From a virus, in IMG/VR virus record IMGVR_UViG_3300028602_000033, positions 1 through 42,182 of that record: 42,182 nt of DNA. The stretch is one strand, 5' to 3'. This document shows, piece after piece, positions 23,781 to 42,182 of this stretch; within the stretch, counting starts at the first letter, position 1; each line of letters begins with the position of its first letter. The notes under the pieces are model-generated. The model was not told where the DNA came from, searched no databases, and saw only the letters and a program-made list of their open reading frames with translations. Both the position numbers and the translations under genes were made by a program.

Positions 23781-25127
23781 TTATTCCTCCACTTCTTCTG
23801 ATTTGTCTACTACCTTTTCTTCTTCTTTCTGCACGCTATTGTTAACATCTCCTGTGGATTTTCTAGATTTTAGTATATCATCAGTATATGGTCCAAACAC
23901 TTGAGCTTTAGCAAGTATTTCTAAAGCTATGTCAGCACTAATGGCATTTGATTGTACGGCGTACCCTACATTAGTAAGTAGTTCAGTAGTGTCTAGTGTA
24001 GCCGGACTATTAAATTTAAAAGATACTCCATCTGGGAATATTTTATTAAACACTTTACGTTCAAATATAGATGCAATTAATTTCTGACGCATCTTGATGT
24101 GGTCTATCCATTCAGCATACCTATCGTTAAAATCATCTGCTTTGAGGTACTCTGTGGCTGCCAACATCTCTATTGGCATACTGAATGCAGCTGCTATTTC
24201 AGATAAAGTTGGTTCCATGAATCTGAAAACATCTATGTCATTTCGTGGCATACTGTTTTCAATATTGAACCTTTCTGAAGTTACATAGACAGTGCGCGCT
24301 GTAAATTTAGTACCAACTGCCGAAGTTACTTCAGAAATATCTTCAGGGGATGCCCCATCTATTACTATATGACATACAGGAAGACTTCTAATAAAACTGT
24401 CAGAAATAGATGATCTTATATGTCCATATTCAGTGGCAGGATATAGTACAGACTGTATGCCTGGTATACCATCTATATATCCACCTAGTGTGCGGTTTTT
24501 GAACACAACTATACGTTTAGCATCTTCACCTTGCCATATAGCTATATCTTTACCATCTCGCTTCTGGACATACCCTTGTGGTTCTCCTGTAGTTTTATCA
24601 TATAGGATGTTATTTGATTTATCTCTAAGATAGTCCATCTCAGTTGGAGGTAGAATTTCAAACTTCCATGTTTTAGTTTCTTTATCATGGTATATCTCCA
24701 ACATTGGTTGACCATATAAACCAATGAAGCGATTGATATCCCGGATGATTAGGTCTAGATCATTGTATTTGATGATATTGTCTATCTCGGCTTGGTCAGA
24801 AGAATTAGTAGGAGTAATGGAGTATCCATTACGAACTATAGCATCTGATTCAGTATCTAATCCACGGGCTATGTATGAGTTAGTAAGGTAGAGGTACTCT
24901 GCGTTGTCTTCGGATAGAAATTCTGCAGTACCTCTATATCTACGACCTGGTGTAGTTTTCTTAGTGCCTTTTACTGCAGGTTTTGCAAGAGTAAGTTGCT
25001 TATCTAGGTTTACAGCGCCTATATATGAACTTAGACTGAACTGGGATTCTGCTAATGAGGTACTAGAGGAACCTGCACTCTGTGCCTGTTGTGATTGTTT
25101 AGCTTGTTTGACTTTAATTCTCGACAT
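23781..25127 (-). CDS. Portal protein
   Basis: 448 aa directly after TerL; LYG...LEI, Y.G.P.IQSV.Y, I.AAF..P.EML pattern. Confidence 0.8.
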   Translation of the reverse strand: MSRIKVKQAKQSQQAQSAGSSSTSLAESQFSLSSYIGAVNLDKQLTLAKPAVKGTKKTTPGRRYRGTAEFLSEDNAEYLYLTNSYIARGLDTESDAIVRNGYSITPTNSSDQAEIDNIIKYNDLDLIIRDINRFIGLYGQPMLEIYHDKETKTWKFEILPPTEMDYLRDKSNNILYDKTTGEPQGYVQKRDGKDIAIWQGEDAKRIVVFKNRTLGGYIDGIPGIQSVLYPATEYGHIRSSISDSFIRSLPVCHIVIDGASPEDISEVTSAVGTKFTARTVYVTSERFNIENSMPRNDIDVFRFMEPTLSEIAAAFSMPIEMLAATEYLKADDFNDRYAEWIDHIKMRQKLIASIFERKVFNKIFPDGVSFKFNSPATLDTTELLTNVGYAVQSNAISADIALEILAKAQVFGPYTDDILKSRKSTGDVNNSVQKEEEKVVDKSEEVEE

Positions 25128-25168
25128 AGTTGCTCCTGGGAGTAGTGCAGTAACCAGTGCCTCCCTTG

Positions 25169-26557
25169 TTATACAAATACTGATGAATTGTACCCCTTTG
25201 ATAATTCTACTTTAGATCCAGTGAGGATGCCCTGGCTAGAGCCTATAGTTAATCCGCCTGCTTTGGTAAAGATGTTAGCTGCACGAATAGCAAGGGCTAT
25301 TGCTATTGGGATGTCGTCGTGTGCATTTTCTCCATTTAACTTTAAATGACCTGTAGTTGGATTTTCTTCATAATAATATGAAACTAATTCTTCTCTAGTT
25401 TGATCATCATCTGGTAATTGTAAAATACCAGTACACATTGCTATATTTAAGTCTGTCATAAGAGGAACTTTGCTAGTACTTGTAAACTGAAATCCGTTAA
25501 ATCGTTTATTTGGGTATTTAATTTTAAGTTGGCTAACTATAGCTGAACCGATATTCCCTTCGTCTATGAGAACGTTGGTTGGATTAAATGCTAAGACTAA
25601 TTTATATAATTCAGTCATTATTTGGTCTGGTGATTTACCATTAAATCTAACTATATTTACAACTTTTAAGTTAGTTTTATCTGTATAATCTAACACAACA
25701 AAAACTGTGAAGTCATGTTTAACAGCAAGATCAGCTGAAATTACATATTTATGTTCAGGTATAGCAAACTTTATTTGTTCAAGTTCTGGGCGAATTGAAC
25801 GTTCTACACCCTCCATATCAAAGAAAGCTCCTTCGGAATTTCCAAATTCTGCTAGATGTTCTCTTTTGAATTTAGCTGTATCGCGTCCACCACATAATTG
25901 TGCAAACATTTCTACTTCTTCTTCTGGTACTTGAAACGTCCCATCGTCATATACTGCATCCTCATATTTCATGTGGAATGTTGTATATCTAGATCCTGGT
26001 TGAAATGCTTTATAAAATTCTCCTGAATAAGATCGAGGCGTTGAAATAAGAACAATTTTTCCTATATTTTTATTTCGTACATTCATAATTGTAGGATAGA
26101 TAGCTGAAAACATATCATCGGATATATATGCAGCCTCGTCTGCCAAAATAAGGTTAATAGAGGGTCCCCTTAACGAATCGGGGTTTCTTCCTGGGACAGA
26201 TTCGATAACCGAGCCATTAGAGAATTCTATTCTACTTTTAGTATTACGTGTTAATGTGTTTACTAGAATAGAATTAGTTATGATGGAATAAATTTTTTGA
26301 AATAATTCATCTGCTTGTCGTTTAGATTTCGATATACAAACTATTCTACAATTATTGTTAGTAGCAGCCATATGTGCGGCATAAACAGCGAAACAATATG
26401 ACTTGCCAAAACGACGTCCAGCTCTGCAAGCAATGAAGCGGTCTTTACACTCTAAAATCTGTTTCTGACCCTTATGAAGCTCTAATTTTAAAACCCTTTC
26501 CGCAAAAACCACAGGACTTTCTTTAAGCTCTATAAGTTCTTTAACAGTTATAGACAT
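25169..26557 (-). CDS. terL: Terminase large subunit
   Basis: Walker A GRRFGKS, Walker B LILADEAA, ISTP coupling motif, RNase H-like ISADLA..D and HDD motifs. Confidence 0.95.
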   Translation of the reverse strand: MSITVKELIELKESPVVFAERVLKLELHKGQKQILECKDRFIACRAGRRFGKSYCFAVYAAHMAATNNNCRIVCISKSKRQADELFQKIYSIITNSILVNTLTRNTKSRIEFSNGSVIESVPGRNPDSLRGPSINLILADEAAYISDDMFSAIYPTIMNVRNKNIGKIVLISTPRSYSGEFYKAFQPGSRYTTFHMKYEDAVYDDGTFQVPEEEVEMFAQLCGGRDTAKFKREHLAEFGNSEGAFFDMEGVERSIRPELEQIKFAIPEHKYVISADLAVKHDFTVFVVLDYTDKTNLKVVNIVRFNGKSPDQIMTELYKLVLAFNPTNVLIDEGNIGSAIVSQLKIKYPNKRFNGFQFTSTSKVPLMTDLNIAMCTGILQLPDDDQTREELVSYYYEENPTTGHLKLNGENAHDDIPIAIALAIRAANIFTKAGGLTIGSSQGILTGSKVELSKGYNSSVFV

Positions 26558-26619
26558 ACATCTTCACCTGCTCTCAAATCTTCTCAATTCATCTAGTAAA
26601 AACTCATCAGTATACTTTC

Positions 26620-26922
26620 TCATACAATCTCCCCACTAAACACCACGTTTTCCACTGGTAGTTTCTTAAACAACTGTCTAGGACAAGCTTCTGGAAACTC
26701 TACTATAACTCTACTATAACTAGCAGGGAGGCACTCGACGCTGTGTGAGTGTGTTATTAACAATTCAGAACCATTTACATTTAAAGAATTCTTGTCTATC
26801 TGAGTAGCTAATTTACTTAATATAAAACGGTCATACAACAATTTCGCTTCGTGTTCATTGGGTGTTATAACAATAACAAGTTTATTAGGTTCTAGTAAAT
26901 TCAATACATCAACAATTTTCAT
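26620..26922 (-). CDS. Hypothetical protein resembling a degenerate terminase ATPase subdomain
   Basis: VIVITPNEHEAKLLY..NGSELLI..RVIVEFPE aligns by eye with TerL IVCISKSKRQADELF..NGSVIE..LILADEAA. Confidence 0.5.
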   Translation of the reverse strand: MKIVDVLNLLEPNKLVIVITPNEHEAKLLYDRFILSKLATQIDKNSLNVNGSELLITHSHSVECLPASYSRVIVEFPEACPRQLFKKLPVENVVFSGEIV

Positions 26923-27105
26923 AAATACACATCTTCATTTCATGATTTACTCCGCTGAATTTTATAGAGCGTTATTTATAAAACATTCTTTATAAAAATG
27001 AGTAGTATATTATAAAGTAATAACTAATTCGGGAGGATGTTCATTCGCCAAATCTCACTGTCATTCTTCCAGATCATGCGGCATTAACATGCCTTGAGAA
27101 TTGGA

Positions 27106-28011
27106 TCAATCATCCAATTCTATGTCAATTATTTTATCTTCATCAATGTCAGATCGAATAGGACCACTTAATACATTCAGTAAATTAATAGTACCATTGA
27201 CGTTAACGTTTCTACCTTCCCGAGCAGCTTTGCTAACAGCCAATTCTTTTAACCATGCTTGAACTCTTTTATCTAATGAATCTACAACATTTGATATTGG
27301 ATTTGGTTCCTGCCATGTTTCATACGAACCATCTGGTGATGTACGTGTACGTTCTACTAACTCACCATTAGCTGCCAATATCTTATTACCGCGTGCCCTT
27401 CTTACTATAGCCATAGCAAGACTGTCTAACATCACCTGGTCTGCCACATCATCAAGTGCATATTCTTCTTTAAACTTATCCTGAATAGCATCGTAAATCT
27501 GCTGTTCTGGCAAACATCTCGGTACAGTAGAACCATATCTATCTACATTAACCAAAGTTTCTCTAAATGGACACGAATTAGCTATAACACATGTTTTAGT
27601 GCAAAATAATATTTCAGATACATTAAAACCATTTGTAATTGAAAGTGCTCTCATTTTATGAGAATGCTCTTTAGTAAGTTTCTTATCACCAGCATGTGCA
27701 TGACATGTTTCTGCTATAGGTTCTGCTATATTTTGACATCGACCAAATCTATATTCGGTTGAACCACATTCTGGGCATTCTGATTTTTTACAATGGTATT
27801 TAGTATCACAAACTGCACAATATTTATGATAAATATTTTGAGCAGCACACTGTCTAGCTGGTTTACCTTTAAATTCTTCACCTTCGTGTACCCAACCTTC
27901 TTCATTTGGCTGTCCAGCATATGTAGCGGTTGTGTGCGCAGATACATTACGCTTTGAATACTGAGCTTGGTCTCTTTTATTATTTCCCCTTCCGTTTACA
28001 CTATATGTAAT
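27106..28011 (-). CDS. Putative terminase small subunit with N-terminal zinc-binding region; true start probably non-canonical (ATT 28011)
   Basis: Frame open for 123 codons upstream of ATG 27654, encoding CAVC/CPEC and RCQN...TCHAHAG motifs; helical C-terminus (LDKRVQAWLKELAVSKAAR); upstream of terL. Confidence 0.6.
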   Translation of the reverse strand: MTYSVNGRGNNKRDQAQYSKRNVSAHTTATYAGQPNEEGWVHEGEEFKGKPARQCAAQNIYHKYCAVCDTKYHCKKSECPECGSTEYRFGRCQNIAEPIAETCHAHAGDKKLTKEHSHKMRALSITNGFNVSEILFCTKTCVIANSCPFRETLVNVDRYGSTVPRCLPEQQIYDAIQDKFKEEYALDDVADQVMLDSLAMAIVRRARGNKILAANGELVERTRTSPDGSYETWQEPNPISNVVDSLDKRVQAWLKELAVSKAAREGRNVNVNGTINLLNVLSGPIRSDIDEDKIIDIELDD

Positions 28012-28023
28012 GTCAACACTTCC

Positions 28024-28665
28024 TTATGAAATATAAGTATAATAATATAATTTTTGAATTTGTTTAGTCGTTAAGTGTTCGTTAAACACCATAAAATTTT
28101 TAATATATCCGGTAAATGTATTAGTAGTACTACCTGTAGCAGAATTACCTATTAATTTTGTAGAGTATGTAGTAGTTGGTAATGATACTGATGCAACTGT
28201 ATTAATGCTAATACCATTCACATACAATGTCAATGCGGTAGGAGTACCTATACAAACTATATGATACCATTCATTATTGCTTAAAGCAGTACTAGATACT
28301 GTATAAGTAGTGCCTGAATGAGTAGCACTAAATCTAAGTATATTAGAATTATCTATTCTAACTTTAATTGAAGATGTAGAATTTGAATTATGAGCTGTAA
28401 ATAGATAAGCGCTTGCACTAGATGATGGTGGAGTAACTGTCTGATTATACCACATGGAAATAGTAAATGTAGAACCTAATGTAAAAGTAAGATCAGACAT
28501 ACTTGAAGCACCGTTTAGATAAAGTGCTTTAGTTCCATTTACTAGTATATATGGTGTAGCTGTACCGTTTATTGTATAATCTAAATTGGTAATCTTATCC
28601 CGCACCTGTGGGAAAGATAACCATGAAACACAATTGTTGTATTTTAGAAAATCTGTGAGGGACAT
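28024..28665 (-). CDS. LamG/concanavalin-A-like domain protein
   Basis: FTISMWY, NNEWYHIVC, LYVNG, FTGYIKNFMVFN motifs; start moved to ATG 28665 because the track start lies inside the promoter repeat. Confidence 0.8.
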   Translation of the reverse strand: MSLTDFLKYNNCVSWLSFPQVRDKITNLDYTINGTATPYILVNGTKALYLNGASSMSDLTFTLGSTFTISMWYNQTVTPPSSSASAYLFTAHNSNSTSSIKVRIDNSNILRFSATHSGTTYTVSSTALSNNEWYHIVCIGTPTALTLYVNGISINTVASVSLPTTTYSTKLIGNSATGSTTNTFTGYIKNFMVFNEHLTTKQIQKLYYYTYIS

Positions 28666-28689
28666 AGGTATACCAAAATTATGTGAGTA

Positions 28690-28741
28690 TACACTATATA
28701 TAAATCTGAGAATCAACAGGTAGTATATAAAGCTTTCTATT
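28690..28741 (-). promoter_or_regulatory. 52-bp repeat copy B, putative promoter heading the late operon
   Basis: GAAAGC-TTTATATA plus the same conserved 26-bp block; 25 bp upstream of ATG 28665. Confidence 0.75.
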
Positions 28742-34373: not shown

Positions 34374-34502
34374 ATGCCATCATTCGAAGAACTAGACCGA
34401 CAATTTACCAAACTCAATGTATCAATAGCACCAAAACCAGCACCAATTGTCAGAAAATCCAGAAGAACTAGAAAAGGAGCGAAAACATGCTACGTAAAAT
34501 AA
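34374..34502 (+). CDS. 42-aa basic hypothetical protein
   Basis: AAGGAG SD; Arg/Lys-rich C-terminus. Confidence 0.55.
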   Translation: MPSFEELDRQFTKLNVSIAPKPAPIVRKSRRTRKGAKTCYVK

Positions 34503-34627
34503 TTAACTTCTTTTCAAATAAATGTGAATACCGACACACCTGCGAACTATACACAAACTGTGATACATGCATCAAGGATTGCATGTCCTGTGGAATTTAT
34601 AAAGCAATTAAACGGGATGAACCATGA
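34487..34627 (+). CDS. 46-aa Cys-rich protein
   Basis: AAGGAG SD; 6 Cys including two CxxC; ATGA coupling to the next gene. Confidence 0.55.
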   Translation: MLRKIINFFSNKCEYRHTCELYTNCDTCIKDCMSCGIYKAIKRDEP

Positions 34628-34779
34628 GTACCAGTAAAATAGTAGGCTGTGAATACTACGACAATGATGCGCATGAATGGATAGCTGATTTCTGTGAAAC
34701 ATGTCCATTTAGTGAAGATAACGTTGGATGTGATGAATATCGCACAGAATTAAATTGTAAATTTATACACGAAGAATAA
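34624..34779 (+). CDS. 51-aa acidic Cys-rich protein
   Basis: ATGA coupling; 5 Cys including CETC. Confidence 0.55.
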   Translation: MSTSKIVGCEYYDNDAHEWIADFCETCPFSEDNVGCDEYRTELNCKFIHEE

Positions 34780-34794
34780 AAGGAGAACTACCAC

Positions 34795-35517
34795 ATGATC
34801 AACGAAAACACCCAAGACCTAATAGAGACCGTCCGTACAGCCCTAAAATCACGCTATGAATTCCCATACTACAGTCTTGTTCGTATAACAACAAGACACT
34901 ACGGTACAATCCATATACCCGCACCAATGTTCAACGGGATGTCAAAAAGAGCAGTATGGGCTGGAAACCTGCCAATTTCTCAGGATAAGAGGAATGGAAA
35001 ATATTACGAATGTTCGTTCTGTGGAGAGAAGAGTTTCTATGCTGGTGTTTGCCAGGATTGCCGGCGAGAAATGTACGGTGAACTCCCTATGGAGTACCGG
35101 AACCACGAAGCCATCAAGAATGCAGTGAAAGAAGAGTTTCTCAGGAGACTTGATTCAGGTCTTGAACTCGGAATAATTTCCGCAGAAATCGTTCTTTCAG
35201 ATGGTCCGCATGACCACTGCGAAACTCAATCACCCTTCCTGAAGAGAAGTGAATACAGAGCAGAAGAAGCGATCAATTATATAGATCGCGTCATAAGATC
35301 CCATGTCCGCCATCAAGAAAGGGAAGAGTATGAGAAAGTGATCCGAGAGTATGTCCCTGATGGTATCCCTATCGATTACATAGAAGGGGAAGAAATCGAA
35401 GTTGAAGGCTCAGAAGAGCTTCGCAGACATATTAATGGAGTCTGGCAGCATAAACACCCTGAAGACGGGTATGATTACTGGCATCCAATGGGGAGAGTGC
35501 ACAAGGTGGATAGGTAA
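34795..35517 (+). CDS. Hypothetical protein with zinc ribbon
   Basis: CSFC...CQDC; AAGGAG SD; visibly higher GC than neighbours. Confidence 0.75.
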
Positions 35518-35523
35518 GATACT

Positions 35524-35718
35524 ATGGCATGTGGAGAGTTCACAAGGAAAGAAAGATCTACCCGCTTTGTAAACCTTCAAAAAACGATAATAAGAACGAT
35601 AGTAAAAGGAGAAACCAAATGGAAAGTAAATATTGTTCATCCTTACGTAGGATATGAGAAAGTTGAATTATTCATTGATATAAAGGAGAGAGATCGATGT
35701 ATACAAAACCGATTCTAA
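35524..35718 (+). CDS. Hypothetical protein
   Basis: Fits the operon spacing. Confidence 0.55.
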   Translation: MACGEFTRKERSTRFVNLQKTIIRTIVKGETKWKVNIVHPYVGYEKVELFIDIKERDRCIQNRF

Positions 35719-36005
35719 ATATGCAACGAGCGGAGTGCCTCCCTCAGGAGAATACAACGTGGAATTATATATGGAATTGGATTGATATGGTGACAACAAG
35801 AGGAACTATGATAGATCTACAAAATATGAGCGACTTCGAATATAAATCAGGCAAATTTACATACAATGTTTACGCTGGAGAGTCTGCGCACTGTGCAATA
35901 CAAAACATGAAGATACTCGCAAAAGCGTTTAACATCGAAGTCACAGCAGTATTTAACTACAATATTGTGACAGTATATCCAAACGAGACAGTTAAAATAA
36001 CATGA
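35697..36005 (+). CDS. Hypothetical protein (start uncertain)
   Basis: Fills the operon gap; A..M..LA......V...FN pattern common in phage proteins. Confidence 0.55.
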   Translation: MYTKPILNMQRAECLPQENTTWNYIWNWIDMVTTRGTMIDLQNMSDFEYKSGKFTYNVYAGESAHCAIQNMKILAKAFNIEVTAVFNYNIVTVYPNETVKIT

Positions 36006-36047
36006 ATTTGTGATTTAAAAATTAAAATAAAAAGGAGATAAGATAAA

Positions 36048-36341
36048 ATGACCACGGAAATAGACAACATTGTATCAAAACTCGATGAAGGTAGTCTTAG
36101 TTCTAAAGAAGTTGTAACACTATTTAATTTAGTAGGATACAACTGTATAGGATTTACACAACACGGTGAATTTTACTGTCTACACAGAGATATCGGAAGA
36201 CTTTTGCCGCTATTCCAGCATATTAAAAATTCAGACACACTTGAAAAAGCTAATGAAGTGCAGCATATGATAGTTTTTAAACCATATGGCATAACGTTGG
36301 CTGATGTTGAAAGAGTGTGGAACGCTTTCCATAACAAATGA
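36048..36341 (+). CDS. Hypothetical protein
   Basis: AAGGAG SD; 97 aa. Confidence 0.65.
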   Translation: MTTEIDNIVSKLDEGSLSSKEVVTLFNLVGYNCIGFTQHGEFYCLHRDIGRLLPLFQHIKNSDTLEKANEVQHMIVFKPYGITLADVERVWNAFHNK

Positions 36342-37137
36342 AGGTGATACTACGTTAAAATTAGTTAAAACAAAATCGTTTGCTAATGGAAATGTGTACG
36401 CATTTCGTACAGAAGATGGTTTCTTAGTTGAAACTACAGACACATTTCTTCCATTCTACACACAGGATTCGTTAAATAGAAAACATAATCTTTTAGATAA
36501 TGATAATCTTGGTGATAGATCTGAACGTTGGATGATTGGTGTGTCTGTAATGTCTGGATGCCCTGTTCGTTGTAAGTTTTGTGCAACCGGACAGATGAAA
36601 AAATGGCGTAATTTGACAACGGAAGAAATTGTAGAACAAGTGGAATTTGTAGTAAACAGTAGATCAGAAAAGTTCATCGATGCAGAGGAACACAAGATAA
36701 ATTATACACGCATGGGAGAACCCTTTCTCAATATTGATAATGTAAAACGCGCTATCCGTATTATAAGCGAAAACTATCCAGGTACACATCATTATGTATC
36801 TACGATAGGAATTAAAAATTCTGATTTCTCGTGGATCGATGGCAACATCACTTTACAAGTATCACTTCATTCGTTGGACGAAAAGAAGCGTAATTGGTTA
36901 ATACCTTATAATGATAAATTAACTATCGAAGAACTTGGACAGGTCAGAACAAATAGTTTCAGAAAAACTACACTTAATATGACGCTAGTAGACGAAACTG
37001 ATTTTAATATAGATACGCTAAAGAAATATTTCGATAAAGACTATTTTTTTATAAAATTAAGTCCTATAAATACCAACATAATATCCGATAAAAACGATTT
37101 AGGTAGCGGAGTTATTAAATACACTAACAGGAGGTGA
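36304..37137 (+). CDS. RlmN/Cfr-like radical SAM protein, N-terminal (large) part
   Basis: VET motif, SVMSGCPVRCKFCATG (CxxxCxxC), RMGEP, VSTIG and LQVSLHS motifs; lacks the C-terminal AACGQL. Confidence 0.85.
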   Translation: MLKECGTLSITNEGDTTLKLVKTKSFANGNVYAFRTEDGFLVETTDTFLPFYTQDSLNRKHNLLDNDNLGDRSERWMIGVSVMSGCPVRCKFCATGQMKKWRNLTTEEIVEQVEFVVNSRSEKFIDAEEHKINYTRMGEPFLNIDNVKRAIRIISENYPGTHHYVSTIGIKNSDFSWIDGNITLQVSLHSLDEKKRNWLIPYNDKLTIEELGQVRTNSFRKTTLNMTLVDETDFNIDTLKKYFDKDYFFIKLSPINTNIISDKNDLGSGVIKYTNRR

Positions 37138-37141
37138 AGAA

Positions 37142-37264
37142 ATGGATGCAATATTTGAGAAACTTCAGGAAAATGGATATGACTATGCAGTAGCAGTTGC
37201 AACTGAAGCTGAAGTTCAGGCTGGAGCTGCATGTGGACAGCTCGCTATAGTAATTGAGGAATAA
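37142..37264 (+). CDS. 40-aa peptide matching the last alpha/beta unit of RlmN, with the AACGQL methyl-carrier Cys motif
   Basis: MDAIFEKLQENGYDYAVAVATEAEVQAGAACGQLAIVIEE; perfect AGGAGGTGA SD overlapping the upstream stop codon; not in the ORF track. Confidence 0.8.
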   Translation: MDAIFEKLQENGYDYAVAVATEAEVQAGAACGQLAIVIEE

Positions 37265-37266
37265 AT

Positions 37267-37527
37267 ATGCGAGTATACATAACTAAAGTGTGTAAAGCAT
37301 ATGACGACAATGGGAGGGAATTCCCTCCTACTACCGACTGTCTTTACGATGACGTTAAAAAGCGTTGGTACACAGAAAATCACACCGTAGAAGAATTAAT
37401 ATCTCTTTTTAAAGATTGTGTTGTATCAGCACCAGGTGGAAGTATGGAATACTGTGCCAATGTTCGTAAAAGATTTCAGGAAGATTGGTTTATAATAGTA
37501 TATAATAATTTTGTAGAATGGGGATAA
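37267..37527 (+). CDS. Hypothetical protein
   Basis: Tightly packed between the peptide gene and NAMPT. Confidence 0.65.
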   Translation: MRVYITKVCKAYDDNGREFPPTTDCLYDDVKKRWYTENHTVEELISLFKDCVVSAPGGSMEYCANVRKRFQEDWFIIVYNNFVEWG

Positions 37528-37528
37528 T

Positions 37529-38890
37529 ATGAACAGTTTAAGTCTTACCGATTCCTATAAAGCTAGTCATTTCCTACTATACCCGCCAAATACCACAGAA
37601 ATCTCAGGGTATTTTGAAGCTAGAGCAAGCTCAAAGTTCGATCATATTTCGTTCTTTGGGTTACAATACTATATTAAAAATAAATTGTTGCCTTTTATAG
37701 AAAACATGGATATAGAAGAGGCAGAGCGAACATGGAATAAGCACGGTTTACCGTTTAATAGAAAAGGATTTGAAGCTCTGAAAGAACTTGGATACTTACC
37801 TATAGAAATTCAGGCAGTACCTGAAGGTATGTATATACCAAAAGATAACGTTCTTTTACAGATGAAAAATACACATCCAGATTTCGCATGGTTAGTTACA
37901 TGGCTTGAAACATCTTTAGTACAACTCTGGTATCCATGTACTGTTGCAAGCTTGTCTAAAAAATGCAAGATTATGATGAAAAAGTACCTTGAGGAAACTG
38001 GCTGCGAAAATATCGAGTCCGTACTTCTGTTCATGCTACACGATTTCGGATGTAGAGGAGCTTCTTCTATGGAATCAGCTAGTATAGGTGGAGCAGCGCA
38101 CCTCACTAATTTTATGGGTACAGATACGTTTATAGCGCTGGATTTACTACGTGAATATTATAATATGGATATGGCTGGTTATTCTATTCCAGCTATGGAA
38201 CATTCCACTGTAATTGCTTGGGAAAACGAAGATGATTCATATCAAAATATATTAGATATGTATTTGAAAGAAAACGCTATATTAGCTTGTGTATCCGATT
38301 CAACTGACTTTAAAAGAGTTAACAGCAATTGGGGCACTCGGTTCAAGCAGCAGATAGAAACTTCCGGTGGACGCGTTGTTGTTCGGCACGATTCTGGTTC
38401 GCCTCTGTATAACTCTATAGATGCTATTAGAACGTTGATGGATAATTTTGGTTCCACAATCAATACTAAAGGATATAAAGTGTTACCGAACTATATCAGA
38501 TTTATATGGGGAGATGGTGCTGATTATGCTATAATCGATCAGACATTACATGCACTAATTGGTTTTGACATAGCCTCTGAAAATATTGTTTTCGGCATGG
38601 GAGGAGCACTTTTACAAAGAGTTGATCGAGATACTTGCTCGTTCGCTTTTAAAATAAACGAAGTTGTTCAGAATAATACAAGACGTGCTGTATATAAGCA
38701 CCCTGTAACTGGAAAAGGTAAAGCGTCAAAACCTGGAAGACAAGCCCTAATATTCGAAAATGGACAGTATAGAACTATACCTGAAATAGAACTACATGGT
38801 AGAGAAAATATACTTAGAACAGTATTTAAAGATGGAAACCTACTTATTGATGAAACCTTTGAAACTATAAGAAAAAGAGCAGACGTATAA
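37529..38890 (+). CDS. nadV: Nicotinamide phosphoribosyltransferase (NAMPT)
   Basis: TDSYKASH, HDFG.RG, SIPAMEHS, VSDS, R.DSG, GDG and FGMGGALLQ.V.RDT motifs. Confidence 0.9.
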   Translation: MNSLSLTDSYKASHFLLYPPNTTEISGYFEARASSKFDHISFFGLQYYIKNKLLPFIENMDIEEAERTWNKHGLPFNRKGFEALKELGYLPIEIQAVPEGMYIPKDNVLLQMKNTHPDFAWLVTWLETSLVQLWYPCTVASLSKKCKIMMKKYLEETGCENIESVLLFMLHDFGCRGASSMESASIGGAAHLTNFMGTDTFIALDLLREYYNMDMAGYSIPAMEHSTVIAWENEDDSYQNILDMYLKENAILACVSDSTDFKRVNSNWGTRFKQQIETSGGRVVVRHDSGSPLYNSIDAIRTLMDNFGSTINTKGYKVLPNYIRFIWGDGADYAIIDQTLHALIGFDIASENIVFGMGGALLQRVDRDTCSFAFKINEVVQNNTRRAVYKHPVTGKGKASKPGRQALIFENGQYRTIPEIELHGRENILRTVFKDGNLLIDETFETIRKRADV

Positions 38891-38910
38891 ATAATAAAGG
38901 AGAAATATAA

Positions 38911-39258
38911 ATGCCCAAAAGAAACGTAATATCAGACGCAGATTCGAGAAACATCAAGCCACTTGACATTGTAATTACACCAAAAGGTGCTTATGCTTAC
39001 GTAGAAGAAGTAAATATACCAAGCAATAAAGATGAATACCCAGAAGTTAGCATTGGTTACTTCGGAAAATACGTTGGTGATAACTCTATGTACGGAGAAC
39101 ATAACGCATGGTGGAATGCTAGAGATTTAGTAATAATCGACAATTTTGCATCAATTTTCGCAAGATCTATGTGTCATCCATTTGGTAGTGGTAAATCGCC
39201 AGCTTTAACTGCATATCCACGACCTAATATTGAGCGTACAGATAAGGAACGAAATTAA
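38911..39258 (+). CDS. Hypothetical protein
   Basis: AAGGAG SD; 115 aa. Confidence 0.7.
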   Translation: MPKRNVISDADSRNIKPLDIVITPKGAYAYVEEVNIPSNKDEYPEVSIGYFGKYVGDNSMYGEHNAWWNARDLVIIDNFASIFARSMCHPFGSGKSPALTAYPRPNIERTDKERN

Positions 39259-39283
39259 TAAACGAAAAATATAGGATGATAAT

Positions 39284-39469
39284 ATGAGCAACTTATCTAT
39301 AAAAGATTCACCATTGCATAAACCGGCTGAATGTGAGTATTACATACTATGTGAGTCTCAATATGGGACTCAGCAATGTTCGATGAAGAGAGCAGACTGT
39401 CTGAAATGTAACAGGAGACTATCCTACGTCAATGAAAACGCCGGAACTGAAAGGCACTTTACGGAATGA
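39284..39469 (+). CDS. Small Cys-rich protein
   Basis: AGGATGA SD; 5 Cys. Confidence 0.55.
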   Translation: MSNLSIKDSPLHKPAECEYYILCESQYGTQQCSMKRADCLKCNRRLSYVNENAGTERHFTE

Positions 39470-39513
39470 AATAACTGTGGGCACACGATATTGTGGGTAA
39501 AAGGTGATAACAA

Positions 39514-39663
39514 TTGGAACTCGATAAATTTGAAGTTTTAGCTCAAGCTATTTATATACTGTTGTTGGTACACTACGCAACTAGTCGTAAAGAGCCAAGC
39601 TTAATCGAAATGTGTGTGGTTCTATACACGCTAATAATATTTTTATATGCTATTTGGATATAA
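39514..39663 (+). CDS. 49-aa two-TM membrane protein
   Basis: AAGGTGA SD then TTG; MELDKFEVLAQAIYILLLVHY...VVLYTLIIFLYAIWI. Confidence 0.5.
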   Translation: MELDKFEVLAQAIYILLLVHYATSRKEPSLIEMCVVLYTLIIFLYAIWI

Positions 39664-41569: not shown

Positions 41570-42182
41570 ATGTTGATAAATCTTTCACAACTAAGTATGC
41601 TTAAATTACTTGCTCTGAGTAAAGCATCCGGTTCGGATGAGATAGGAGGTATAATGATTGGATATGTGGATTCTGATCAAATTGTTGTAACTGATATAAC
41701 AGTACCAAAGCAGGAAGTTACAGCTGCTTCTATAAGTTTTGATGACACATCTCTTAATGATCAGATAAGCGAACTATTTTTTGCAGAATCTGATTCATAT
41801 CTAGTTGGTTGGTGGCATACGCACGGAGATACGAAAGTTTTCTGGTCATCCACAGACCAGAACGACGGAATCAATAAATTCTTAAAACCACTAATTGAAA
41901 ATAAAGATACGCCTATCAATGATAAATGGCTTGCTTCTATTGTAGCCAACTCACATGGAGATATTTTAGGGCGTATTGATTATTACAGTGAAACCCCATT
42001 TGGTAGCCATATAAATACACTAAATGATGTACCTGTAGTTTGTTTACCCCAAGTAACTGAAGCACATATTTCTGCCGCTAAAAAGGAAATTAAAGCTAAA
42101 GTTACTAAACCTAAATACACAAGCACATATAAAAAGGGAAAATGGTGTGGTAAAGGTGCTTATAAATATATGTGGAGTTATT
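41570..42182 (+). CDS. JAB/MPN+ metalloprotease (3' end outside the window)
   Basis: ATG 41570 after a GAGGTG SD; EIGG, then HTHGDTKVFWSSTD = exact JAMM HxHx7Sx2D; absent from the ORF track because it is open-ended. Confidence 0.9.
   Translation, partial: MLINLSQLSMLKLLALSKASGSDEIGGIMIGYVDSDQIVVTDITVPKQEVTAASISFDDTSLNDQISELFFAESDSYLVGWWHTHGDTKVFWSSTDQNDGINKFLKPLIENKDTPINDKWLASIVANSHGDILGRIDYYSETPFGSHINTLNDVPVVCLPQVTEAHISAAKKEIKAKVTKPKYTSTYKKGKWCGKGAYKYMWSY

Follow-up and report, generated by a model that had tools for sequence, protein, structure and literature searches.

The RlmN/Cfr-like radical SAM enzyme encoded in a 42,182-nt stretch of DNA from a gut-type phage (IMG/VR virus record IMGVR_UViG_3300028602_000033, positions 1 to 42,182; hereafter the window) is divided between two genes, one for a core that stops before the last unit of the barrel and one for a 40-aa peptide that consists of this unit, and the division is a real and conserved phage design, common to many lineages. 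RlmN and Cfr methylate by way of a methyl-cysteine and a covalent enzyme–substrate intermediate, which a second cysteine is needed to resolve. To judge from its sequence, the system described here is a phage variant of this design, without the second cysteine and with the first on a separate peptide. We regard a two-subunit architecture of core and peptide as highly probable and, by analogy with RlmN, think it probable that the two perform RlmN-like methyl-Cys radical chemistry; that the two-subunit architecture and a catalytic RlmN-like chemistry hold jointly, whatever the target, has in our judgment slightly less than an even chance. Our literature search retrieved no paper about an RlmN-like enzyme of phages that is split or lacks Cys118.

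Core and Peptide Genes

The genes and sequence elements of the pair are as follows:

36304..37137, + strand: core subunit gene, RlmN/Cfr-like radical SAM protein, 277 aa from ATG
36538..36540, + strand: Gly codon (GGT) in the column of E. coli RlmN Cys118, the resolving cysteine, within the conserved MIGVS
36559..36582, + strand: CxxxCxxC [4Fe-4S] cluster motif (Cys86, Cys90, and Cys93 of the 277-aa ORF)
37129..37137, + strand: Shine-Dalgarno AGGAGGTGA of the peptide gene, 4 nt before its ATG and including the core stop codon
37142..37264, + strand: peptide subunit gene, 40 aa, homolog of the RlmN C-terminal helix, strand, and Cys355 loop (GYDYAVAVATEAEVQAGAACGQL)
37232..37234, + strand: Cys31 codon of the peptide, by alignment the counterpart of the methyl-carrying RlmN Cys355 and Cfr Cys338

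A preliminary description of the window had reported a core with VET, CxxxCxxC, and MGEP that ends before the last barrel unit, this unit with its AACGQL as a separate ORF in another frame with its own perfect Shine-Dalgarno (SD), and a Gly instead of RlmN Cys118; the motifs, the stop, the second ORF, and its SD were all recovered from the sequence, and the Gly from an HMMER alignment to E. coli RlmN. The core reads VET, SGCPVRCKFCATG, and TRMGEP, and also SLH; SGCPVRCKFC and TRMGEP, the cluster and SAM-binding GEP motifs, are invariant between lineages. The second mechanistic cysteine (RlmN Cys118, Cfr Cys105), seven residues ahead of the first cluster Cys, is a Gly in the window, where the stretch MIGVSVMSGC aligns with LAVSSQVGC of the 4pl1 chain, itself a C118A mutant. 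The core terminates at a TGA (37135–37137) that follows the strand FFIKLSPIN and precedes the final helix–strand–Cys-loop unit, and its homologs of about 260 aa (n = 2,086) have their termini at the same position. We rejected a recoding of TGA to W, as the frame then meets many more TGAs and never gives AACGQL. At the other end, homologs begin 16 codons downstream of the ATG of the window and, because the window codon there is ACG, the likely start is ATG 36304 or TTG 36307; the first 16 residues, Cys5 among them, show no conservation, and the conserved part comprises 261 aa from 36352.

The peptide ORF is in the +1 frame relative to the core and carries AGAACGQL. It is homologous over its whole length to the C-terminal structural unit of the RlmN family and is conserved throughout, with no division into a leader and a variable core, and its Cys31 is invariant in the peptide alignment as well as in lineage representatives. 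In the window, the SD match is 9 nt long for the peptide versus 3 nt for the core start; across lineages, it is longer for the peptide in 20 and shorter in 9. A promoter and terminator scan of 34500–39600 gave nothing over shuffled expectation.

In Pfam, the core ORF matches Radical_SAM (8.6e-13) and, under its cut-off, Fer4_12; no RRE, SPASM, or twitch domain was found. The nearest solved structures by sequence are those of RlmN (6fz6, 2.2e-13; 4pl1, 5hr6, and 3rf9) and Cfr (9p0p, 3e-9). Likewise, the eleven top PDB fold matches of the AlphaFold model of the core (pLDDT 87.8) are all RlmN (TMq 0.72–0.64) or Cfr (0.58), the next being TYW1 (0.49). Given that RlmN and Cfr are nearest in both sequence and fold, and that VET, the cluster, GEP, SLH, and AACGQL are all kept, the pair could be an ordinary RNA C-methylase in two pieces, which makes m2A or m8A on a tRNA or rRNA of host or phage and has some other residue, or water, in the role of Cys118, the split being mechanistically meaningless; genes of tRNA repair (RtcB and PNKP) adjoin it in a few lineages. 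However, the core scores far under the family cut-offs (80 bits against 290 for the RlmN model TIGR00048 and 51.6 against 550 for the Cfr model TIGR04432). Its match spans just positions 102–249 of the RlmN model (length 355) and starts at PDB residues 97–117; the RlmN N-terminal RNA-binding domain is thus absent, and ahead of the barrel the core has the beta-extension alone. The Cys module is strongly acidic (median net charge −5), whereas RlmN/Cfr-type tails are neutral to basic (median +1). No nucleic-acid target is indicated. Moreover, both mechanistic differences from RlmN are fixed over a deep divergence, cores being merely 34–49% identical between lineages, and the family falls in a separate Cys118-less clade of the tree described below. 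We therefore hold an ordinary RNA C-methylase to be rather improbable.

Conservation of the Split

Whether the split and the Cys-to-Gly change are conserved in homologous gene pairs, a question raised with the preliminary description, was answered in the affirmative. None of the 212 Gly-type loci, which represent 41 lineages, has the Cys unit fused C-terminally to the core, and a peptide gene lies nearby in about 205 of them (160 of the 166 loci from viruses or GenBank and 45 of the 46 split-type loci from genomes). The Cys118 column is a Gly in every one (166/166 and 46/46, respectively). Its recurrence at every related locus examined puts the design far beyond chance. The core family counts thousands of phage sequences, including those of human-gut crAss-like phages, and carriers of the pair include the cultured phages Kehishuvirus tikkala, Pectobacterium phages Arno18 and Wc4, Yersinia phage P778, and Vibrio phage D479.

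The preliminary description had also pointed out that the +1 frame is open from 37103, which is the case; a single indel could consequently fuse the two ORFs in the window, and the split might then be an artifact or the mark of a decaying gene, that is, a 1-nt error, a pseudogene, or a programmed +1 frameshift giving a fused RlmN-like protein. Against this, an independent assembly (L175), 99.64% identical over 2,474 nt, has the identical junction and not a single gap, and in a relative that is 72% identical (L176) the peptide lies in the core's own frame, behind a TAA and one codon. The core–peptide gap varies among loci from −17 nt to 5.7 kb, in any frame, and the peptide sometimes lies upstream of the core. 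Because relatives thus have the peptide in the +1, the +2, or the same frame, upstream, or 0.4–5.7 kb away, neither frameshift nor readthrough can explain the split. Both ORFs are also under clear purifying selection, and the peptide has a perfect SD of its own, so that the probability of an artifact or a decaying gene is, in our opinion, negligible.

A fusion of core and then peptide in a single ORF, which was sought as a refutation, was not encountered in the 41 lineages. Candidates for fused forms among homologs of near length (P0082, P0092, and P0036) proved to be N-terminal miscalls, longer at the start and with the same C-terminal end. Nor does another Cys offer itself as the resolving residue, a second possibility that was checked: in all 27 lineage representatives, the conserved Cys columns are just the three cluster ligands of the core and the single Cys of the peptide.

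In a quick FastTree phylogeny rooted at midpoint, the clade of the window comprises 31 rows with tails on a separate gene, 27 of them with Gly in the 118 column, and it groups with cellular Cys118-less clades whose tails are fused, opposite the RlmN/Cfr clade that has Cys118 (bipartition support 99). Since the tails of these Cys118-less cellular relatives are fused, the loss of Cys118 on this tree extends beyond the split.

Predicted Docking and Fate of the Peptide

Co-folding of the two chains, which had been suggested as a check, gave a peptide predicted to dock as the missing barrel strand, with ipSAE values of 0.88, 0.89, and 0.87 (best control 0.00; the ipSAE mark is reached by 58 of 80 solved complexes and by 2 of 110 mismatched pairs), a score that may be a memory of solved single-chain RlmN structures and may therefore speak for likeness rather than for binding. 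At least 90% of contacts agreed between runs, the partner pLDDT was at least 83, and the interface comprised about 150 contacts, with peptide residues 13–18 paired with core strand 232–236. This model supports insertion of the peptide into the barrel as its missing last helix and strand.

What Cys355 and Cys118 do in RlmN has been described (PMC5130265), and RlmN C118A is trapped in a covalent enzyme–tRNA complex (PMC5130265; PDB 5hr6 and 5hr7 titles). In the phage loci, where Gly is invariable and no other Cys is conserved, the peptide might accordingly be a single-use reagent, left on its target (RNA, DNA, nucleotide, or protein) via a CH2 bridge, and the pair might serve to tag, trap, or poison instead of to methylate. 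Often, no more than 2–20 nt separate the two genes; such close spacing without core-then-peptide fusion in any of the 41 lineages suggests selection for separate chains. The SD match favors the peptide in most lineages that differ, and Vibrio phage D479 has two tandem Cys modules in a single ORF under purifying selection, in which 18 of 32 codons differ by 15 synonymous and 3 conservative changes. On the other hand, the peptide is predicted as an inserted barrel strand and helix, not as a loosely bound substrate, and as an integral strand a spent peptide could be exchanged only by partial unfolding of the enzyme. Each event would cost two SAM and one peptide. Cellular relatives without Cys118 but with a fused tail (P0188, P0197, P0213, and P0252) would have to sacrifice the whole enzyme. 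P0137 is a single 695-aa ORF in which the Cys module and the core are joined to a second radical SAM enzyme, and the L106 peptide shares its reading frame with the second radical SAM enzyme there. The evidence is mixed; on balance, we find a consumed peptide unlikely and favor a peptide that serves as a subunit of a catalytic enzyme.

Against the reading that we favor stand three features that would suit a peptide used stoichiometrically better than a plain subunit, namely the strict lack of C-terminal re-fusion, the tandem modules of D479, and the peptide's stronger SD.

Gene Neighborhood and NAD+ Salvage

Two further genes follow the pair in the window:

37267..37527, + strand: 86-aa ORF, starting 2 nt after the peptide gene and ending 1 nt before NAMPT
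37529..38890, + strand: nicotinamide phosphoribosyltransferase (NAMPT), first enzyme of the phage NAD+ salvage pathway NARP2 (phrog_448, 1.4e-141)

Core, peptide, 86-aa ORF, and NAMPT thus form a block with gaps of 4, 2, and 1 nt. The 86-aa ORF has no match in Pfam, PHROGs, or NCBIfam and no usable Atlas match; homologs of 86 and 89 aa occupy the same position in the closest relatives, L175 and L176, and in L176 a NUDIX gene lies directly upstream of the core. NMNAT-Nudix was not found in the 42-kb window, the record being only about 37% complete.

Phage NAD+ reconstitution pathway 2 (NARP2) consists of NAMPT and NMNAT (bioRxiv 10.1101/2024.02.11.579819); the words "radical SAM" have zero occurrences in the text of this preprint and of the NARP3 paper. 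NAMPT or NMNAT-Nudix lies within 6.5 kb of the pair in 11 of 41 lineages, the other 30 having no such link. In seven lineages, NAMPT is within 2.5 kb (−15 to 2,463 nt from the core) and always on the same strand, and the gene order is NMNAT–core–peptide–NAMPT in L094 and L105 and NMNAT–NAMPT–core–peptide in L148. Three of the five GenBank phages with the pair have NAMPT, the frequency of which among GenBank phage records is 4%. The genomes of Kehishuvirus tikkala and Moorella phage MTATph1 contain the pair but no NAMPT anywhere, which means that the pair cannot depend on NAD salvage as an obligatory partner. In large phages, auxiliary and counter-defence genes tend to cluster, and for this reason the adjacency to NAD genes may reflect shared regulation rather than chemistry.

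A counter-defence role could take a form in which the peptide is a single-use methylene donor, welded to a target that contains adenine (for instance, an immune signal derived from NAD, a molecule bearing ADP-ribose, or an RNA of the host), beside NAD+ salvage. We judge this combination quite improbable.

Other neighbors occur in some lineages, among them ThyX and the tRNA repair genes already mentioned. A second radical SAM enzyme lies between or beside core and peptide in 12 of 41 lineages, and a small class I methyltransferase near the pair in 6 of 41. The second radical SAM enzyme is weakly similar to the peptide-modifying YydG and SkfB (E-value 1e-3 or weaker); its identification as MoaA, viperin, YydG, or SkfB was rejected, these similarities being generic and sub-threshold. 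A short peptide gene beside a radical SAM gene, the additional enzymes, and the tandem modules of D479 recall RiPP-like systems, in which the peptide would be both substrate and end product, or else would provide the scaffold for a small molecule, its Cys being modified by the core and, elsewhere, by the second radical SAM enzyme and the methyltransferase. Yet the peptide is, from end to end, a homolog of the enzyme family's own C-terminal unit, and the co-fold puts it within the barrel. The core is without SPASM, twitch, or RRE, no protease or exporter was found, and neither the second radical SAM enzyme nor the small methyltransferase was found in the window. A RiPP-like or scaffold system is for these reasons very improbable.

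Proposed Reaction and Target

In the mechanism that we favor, the core of about 261 aa would bind a [4Fe-4S] cluster and SAM, and the peptide would dock as the last helix and strand of the barrel, so that its single Cys, which corresponds to RlmN Cys355, comes to lie in the active site. The subsequent steps are those that we infer from RlmN and Cfr: a first SAM would methylate the peptide Cys, a second would be cleaved to a 5'-deoxyadenosyl radical that converts the S-methyl into an S-CH2 radical, and this radical would add to an sp2 carbon of the substrate. Because the family belongs to a wider Cys118-less sister clade of RlmN/Cfr, release of the adduct would need something besides RlmN's second cysteine. 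In our view, the enzyme most likely turns over, possibly via another base or a more acidic position of the substrate; for the replacement base, no candidate was identified. Catalytic turnover without a step of the Cys118 type seems to us nearly as probable as its opposite.

The target is presumably other than 23S rRNA A2503. The presence of the pair within NAMPT/NMNAT clusters makes an adenine or pyridine nucleotide connected to phage NAD+ salvage and counter-defence the best lead; an NAD-related target is a tentative proposal, which we consider somewhat unlikely as it stands.

Whether the two-cysteine mechanism is indispensable is put to the test by a natural family that has no second cysteine and carries the first on a peptide of its own, and either of two outcomes may be expected: a new way of resolving the intermediate, or an adduct that is itself the product. 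The repeated embedding in NAMPT/NMNAT clusters ties the pair to phage NAD+ salvage, a matter of phage–bacterium conflict, and provides candidate substrates. Because cultured phages carry the pair, its role is directly testable. If the peptide did remain on its target, the pair would also offer a compact and genetically encoded means of covalent tagging.

Comparison with Known Systems

With NARP2, the system shares a genomic setting: the NAMPT of the window belongs to the gene block of the pair, and elsewhere the pair lies between or beside NMNAT-Nudix and NAMPT, although most lineages with the pair have no adjacent NAD genes.

RlmN, the C2-methyltransferase of 23S rRNA A2503 and tRNA A37 (TIGR00048), has the same barrel, beta-extension (VET), CxxxCxxC, GEP, and SLH, and its AACGQL loop with the methyl-carrier Cys comes after the same helix–strand unit as in the phage peptide. 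Among the structures compared (PDB 3RF9/3RFA, 4PL1, 5HR6/5HR7, and 6FZ6) are the best matches of the core in sequence (2.2e-13) and in fold (TMq 0.72). The phage system differs in that the Cys355 unit is on a separate 40-aa protein, Cys118 is a Gly, there is no N-terminal domain for RNA binding, the Cys module has an acidic character, and the family forms part of a separate Cys118-less clade.

Cfr, the C8-methyltransferase of 23S rRNA A2503 (TIGR04432; PDB 9P0P), carries out class A radical SAM methylase chemistry via its methylated C-terminal Cys338, on a mobile loop (PMC3702613). Like the predicted phage complex, it is without the long C-terminal helix of RlmN; unlike the phage pair, it is a single chain, keeps its second cysteine (Cys105), and acts on rRNA. 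Its match to the core (3e-9; TMq 0.58) is weaker than that of RlmN.

The missing cysteine has a parallel in uncharacterised RlmN-like proteins of bacterial MAGs and genomes (P0188, P0197, P0211, P0213, and P0252), which have no Cys118, keep the Cys of a fused tail (...NCGQ or AACGQ), and belong to the same Cys118-less half of the tree as the phage family; some are paired with a second radical SAM gene. They differ from the phage system in being single chains and in having I, N, V, M, or T, not G, in the 118 column. Several are fused to, or adjoin, an isochorismatase-like domain. A link from this domain to nicotinamidase, as evidence for NAD chemistry, was considered and dropped: the neighbor at L173 is a generic member of the cysteine-hydrolase family, and in the fused isochorismatase-like domains of P0213 and P0252, the usual catalytic Cys, by eye, is seemingly missing.

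Finally, in having no cysteine at position 118, the phage system is the natural equivalent of a laboratory mutation, RlmN C118A (5HR6/5HR7). The mutant is an engineered dead end on tRNA or rRNA, whereas selection has fixed the phage state across thousands of sequences, and in fused cellular relatives as well, so that it presumably works productively.

A Split RlmN/Cfr-Like Enzyme

Four features of the window define the gene pair:

36304-37137 (+), core ORF, an RlmN/Cfr-like radical SAM protein of 277 aa, with the motifs VET, SGCPVRCKFCATG, and TRMGEP read in translation
36538, Gly codon at the column of Cys118, the resolving cysteine of Escherichia coli RlmN, as placed by HMMER alignment
37129-37137 (+), Shine-Dalgarno (SD) sequence of the peptide gene, AGGAGGTGA
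37142-37264, peptide ORF of 40 aa, MDAIFEKLQENGYDYAVAVATEAEVQAGAACGQLAIVIEE, starting four bases past the core stop

The core matches Pfam Radical_SAM (E = 8.6e-13), and its closest solved structures by sequence are RlmN (6fz6, 2.2e-13; 4pl1, 5hr6, and 3rf9) and Cfr (9p0p). It ends at a TGA codon (37135-37137) immediately 3' of the strand FFIKLSPIN, and the peptide is the counterpart of RlmN's last helix and strand and of the loop that bears the methyl-carrier cysteine, Cys355. In the HMMER alignment, LAVSS of the 4pl1 chain, a C118A mutant, falls opposite IGVSV of the core. Re-reading and alignment thus agree with everything that the preliminary description had read from the sequence, that is, the motifs, the split, the SD, and the Gly in place of Cys118. 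Homologs begin 16 codons 3' of the window's ATG, where the window has an ACG codon, and the N-terminal 16 residues of the core are therefore lineage-specific. The window spans a complete IMG/VR record of 42,182 nt with an estimated completeness of 37%. Of the phages in GenBank, the closest to it is Kehishuvirus tikkala (66% aa identity), a crAss-like phage of Bacteroides cellulosilyticus. A structural/packaging block on the opposite strand (23781-28716, -) encodes a portal-like protein, the terminase large subunit, and a Laminin_G_3 concanavalin-A-like lectin (3e-21), together with a weak match to the terminase small subunit.

The Split Is Genuine and Conserved

A sequencing artefact or a frameshift fusion of the two ORFs was considered and ruled out. 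In L175, an independent ENA assembly, 2474 nt align at 99.64% identity with no gaps, and the core/peptide junction is the same; in L176, a locus 72% identical to the window, the peptide is in frame with the core, after a TAA and one codon. Across loci, the two genes are spaced anywhere between -17 nt and 5.7 kb apart, all frames are represented, and the peptide gene lies 5' of the core in L092, L195, and L216. Because gap, order, and frame vary in this way, frameshifting and readthrough are ruled out as well.

A search of 5.8 billion proteins with the core gave 2086 matches at E<=1e-5, of which the top 120 measure about 260 aa, and the ones read over their whole length stop where the window core stops. 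Conservation of both the split and the Cys-to-Gly change, a check suggested by the preliminary description, is seen across the 166 viral or GenBank loci and the 46 split-type genome loci examined: Gly occupies the 118 column in 212/212, and a peptide gene was located in 160/166 and 45/46, respectively. The loci without a peptide call are a frameshifted copy, cut loci, two contigs that have no peptide gene in the surrounding 6 kb, and one AACGMM variant, which the search pattern missed and which does have the peptide.

Split-type loci in cultured Bacteroidales assemblies (L198, Bacteroides congonensis Marseille-P3132T; L180, Segatella copri HF1825; L184, Lepagella muris) point to culturable hosts. 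The L198 locus, at 926-939 kb and deep within a 1.85-Mb contig, could be an integrated or a co-assembled phage.

Family Placement and the Second Cysteine

With 80 bits for RlmN TIGR00048, where the cut-off is 290, and 52 bits for Cfr TIGR04432, where it is 550, the core falls outside both equivalogs. In the 150 top cluster representatives from 1.84 billion proteins, 32/38 full-length proteins with Cys at 118 have a fused A[AG]CGQL tail, and no full-length protein with Gly there has a tail Cys; a third group combines I, N, V, M, T, or A at 118 with a fused ...NCGQ tail. In the family tree (FastTree, tail columns excluded, midpoint root), Cys118 proteins (RlmN, Cfr, and a phage group) and Cys118-less proteins form two clades, divided with a support of 99. 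The latter clade contains fused cellular groups and the window's group (support 91), 31 rows without a fused tail, 27 of which have Gly at 118. Since the Cys118-less clade includes fused proteins, the loss of Cys118 is wider, and probably older, than the split, which therefore cannot be why the second cysteine became dispensable.

The absence of a resolving Cys, proposed at the outset, is upheld by 27 lineage representatives, in which no cysteines are conserved besides the three cluster Cys of the core and a single peptide Cys. A few lineages have an extra peptide Cys (CGQMC or C-terminal ICE), which the window's peptide lacks. It follows the first Cys by four residues (AACGQMCLV) or lies close to the C-terminus (...AIICE), is seen in L097, L093, L094, L223, and others and in L007-type and L166 peptides, and might serve there as a resolving thiol in cis.

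Several relatives show other arrangements. In a separate Gly-type clade (KIGVSL.SGC..GC.YCF; P0178, P0196, P0199, and 9 more representatives), helix and strand are still fused (...GF.YA.R) and the chain stops just short of the Cys loop. Cellular Cys118-less fused-tail relatives (L172 with P0213, the P0252 locus, and L173 with P0211) have an isochorismatase-like domain fused or adjoining, and one of them adjoins a thioredoxin-reductase-like flavoprotein and another radical SAM gene. The 601-aa core homolog P0122 carries a LAGLIDADG/Hint intein within CxxxCxxC, just before the third cluster Cys (GCPVRCAF-[intein]-CATAK); active-site insertion is typical of inteins.

Predicted Fold and Docking

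Modeled alone (pLDDT 87.8), the core resembles RlmN and Cfr most, as these fill the first eleven places among its PDB matches (TMq 0.72-0.58), with TYW1 (0.49) next. Co-folding of core (14-row alignment) and peptide (13-row alignment) with SAM and the 4Fe-4S cluster, as the preliminary description had suggested, placed the peptide as a barrel strand, with ipSAE values of 0.88, 0.89, and 0.87, whereas the best among three controls scored 0.00; the ipSAE mark is attained by 58/80 solved complexes and 2/110 mismatched pairs, and passing it may stem from likeness to the RlmN fold, because RlmN was solved as a single chain. The runs share at least 90% of contacts, peptide pLDDT is at least 83, and peptide residues 13-18 (YDYAVA) are predicted to pair with core strand 232-236. 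The model shows the peptide as the predicted missing barrel unit, and it speaks to likeness rather than to binding in a cell.

Stable Subunit or Consumable Peptide

The peptide had been proposed to be a consumable, supplying the methyl-Cys in trans and staying permanently attached to an RNA, DNA, or protein target. We consider this reading, in which the peptide would be a stoichiometric, single-use reagent, possible but rather improbable. Core-then-peptide fusion occurs in 0/41 lineages, though a spacing of just 2-20 nt is common, as would suit such a reagent, and so would the two tandem Cys modules kept by Vibrio phage D479 in a 93-aa ORF (L005:3300-3581, OZ195776.1; period 96 nt, 81% DNA identity), where 18/32 codons differ, 15 of them synonymously; a longer SD match on the peptide in 20 lineages versus 9 is weak evidence in the same direction. 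However, the co-folded interface is extensive and strand-inserting, and Cys118-less relatives with a fused tail exist. Two further cases favor a stable subunit. P0137 is a circularly permuted triple fusion, whose single ORF of 695 aa starts with a Cys module (GYEFYISTISANEKHVGAACGNL), continues with a core that has Asp at the Cys118 column, and closes with a second radical SAM domain. In L106:7124-8116, the 330-aa ORF of a second radical SAM enzyme reads in frame, uninterrupted by a stop codon, through to the Cys peptide (...RRKDMENNVEETIKKQL...AACGQLAIITE). To judge from its reading frame, the L106 peptide may be made either as this fusion or from an internal ATG.

Genomic Neighborhood

The window's gene block runs from the core through the peptide and an 86-aa ORF (37267-37527) to the NAD+ salvage gene NAMPT (phrog_448, 1.4e-141), with successive gaps of 4, 2, and 1 nt. 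The same block is found in L175 and L176, and in L176 a NUDIX gene overlaps the core start. When neighbors were clustered over all loci (41 lineages), NAMPT lay <=6.5 kb from the core in 7, on the same strand every time, at -15 to 2463 nt and sometimes overlapping the core; NMNAT-Nudix lay within that distance in 9, and 11 had at least one of the two. NMNAT and NAMPT lie on either side of the pair in L094 and L105. NAMPT is present in 2014/50,697 GenBank phage records (4%), and by a rough estimate less than one lineage would show this adjacency by chance. The link is not universal, as Kehishuvirus and a Moorella phage have the pair without NAMPT. Next to the pair, 12 lineages encode a second radical SAM enzyme that could be assigned to no family, and 6 encode a small methyltransferase; ThyX, RtcB, and PNKP also recur; none of these five is found in the 42,182-nt window. 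A JAB/MPN-domain protein (PF01398, 4.3e-10) is encoded 2.7 kb 3' of NAMPT on the same strand (41570-42181, +), open at the record end.

Comparison with RlmN and Cfr

The roles of Cys355 and of the C118A change in RlmN (PMC5130265) and of Cys338 in Cfr (PMC3702613) have been described. By homology, one SAM would methylate Cys31 of the peptide, a second would yield a 5'-deoxyadenosyl radical and then an S-CH2 radical, and the latter would attack an sp2 carbon of the substrate; release would take place without any Cys118-type residue. We favor a catalytic two-subunit enzyme whose target would be a nucleotide tied to NAD salvage or counter-defence. What the data show extends to the architecture, its conservation, the absent cysteine, the gene linkage, and the predicted docking; chemistry, turnover, and target are inferred beyond them. 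Full-text literature searches returned no description of a split, Cys118-less design, which is apparently new to the literature. The pair is a real, conserved variant of a well-studied enzyme mechanism, and it differs from the known enzymes in two further respects: the core lacks the N-terminal domain of RlmN, and the Cys module is acidic (median net charge -5), whereas RlmN/Cfr-type tails carry +1, both of which argue against an rRNA or tRNA substrate of the RlmN type.
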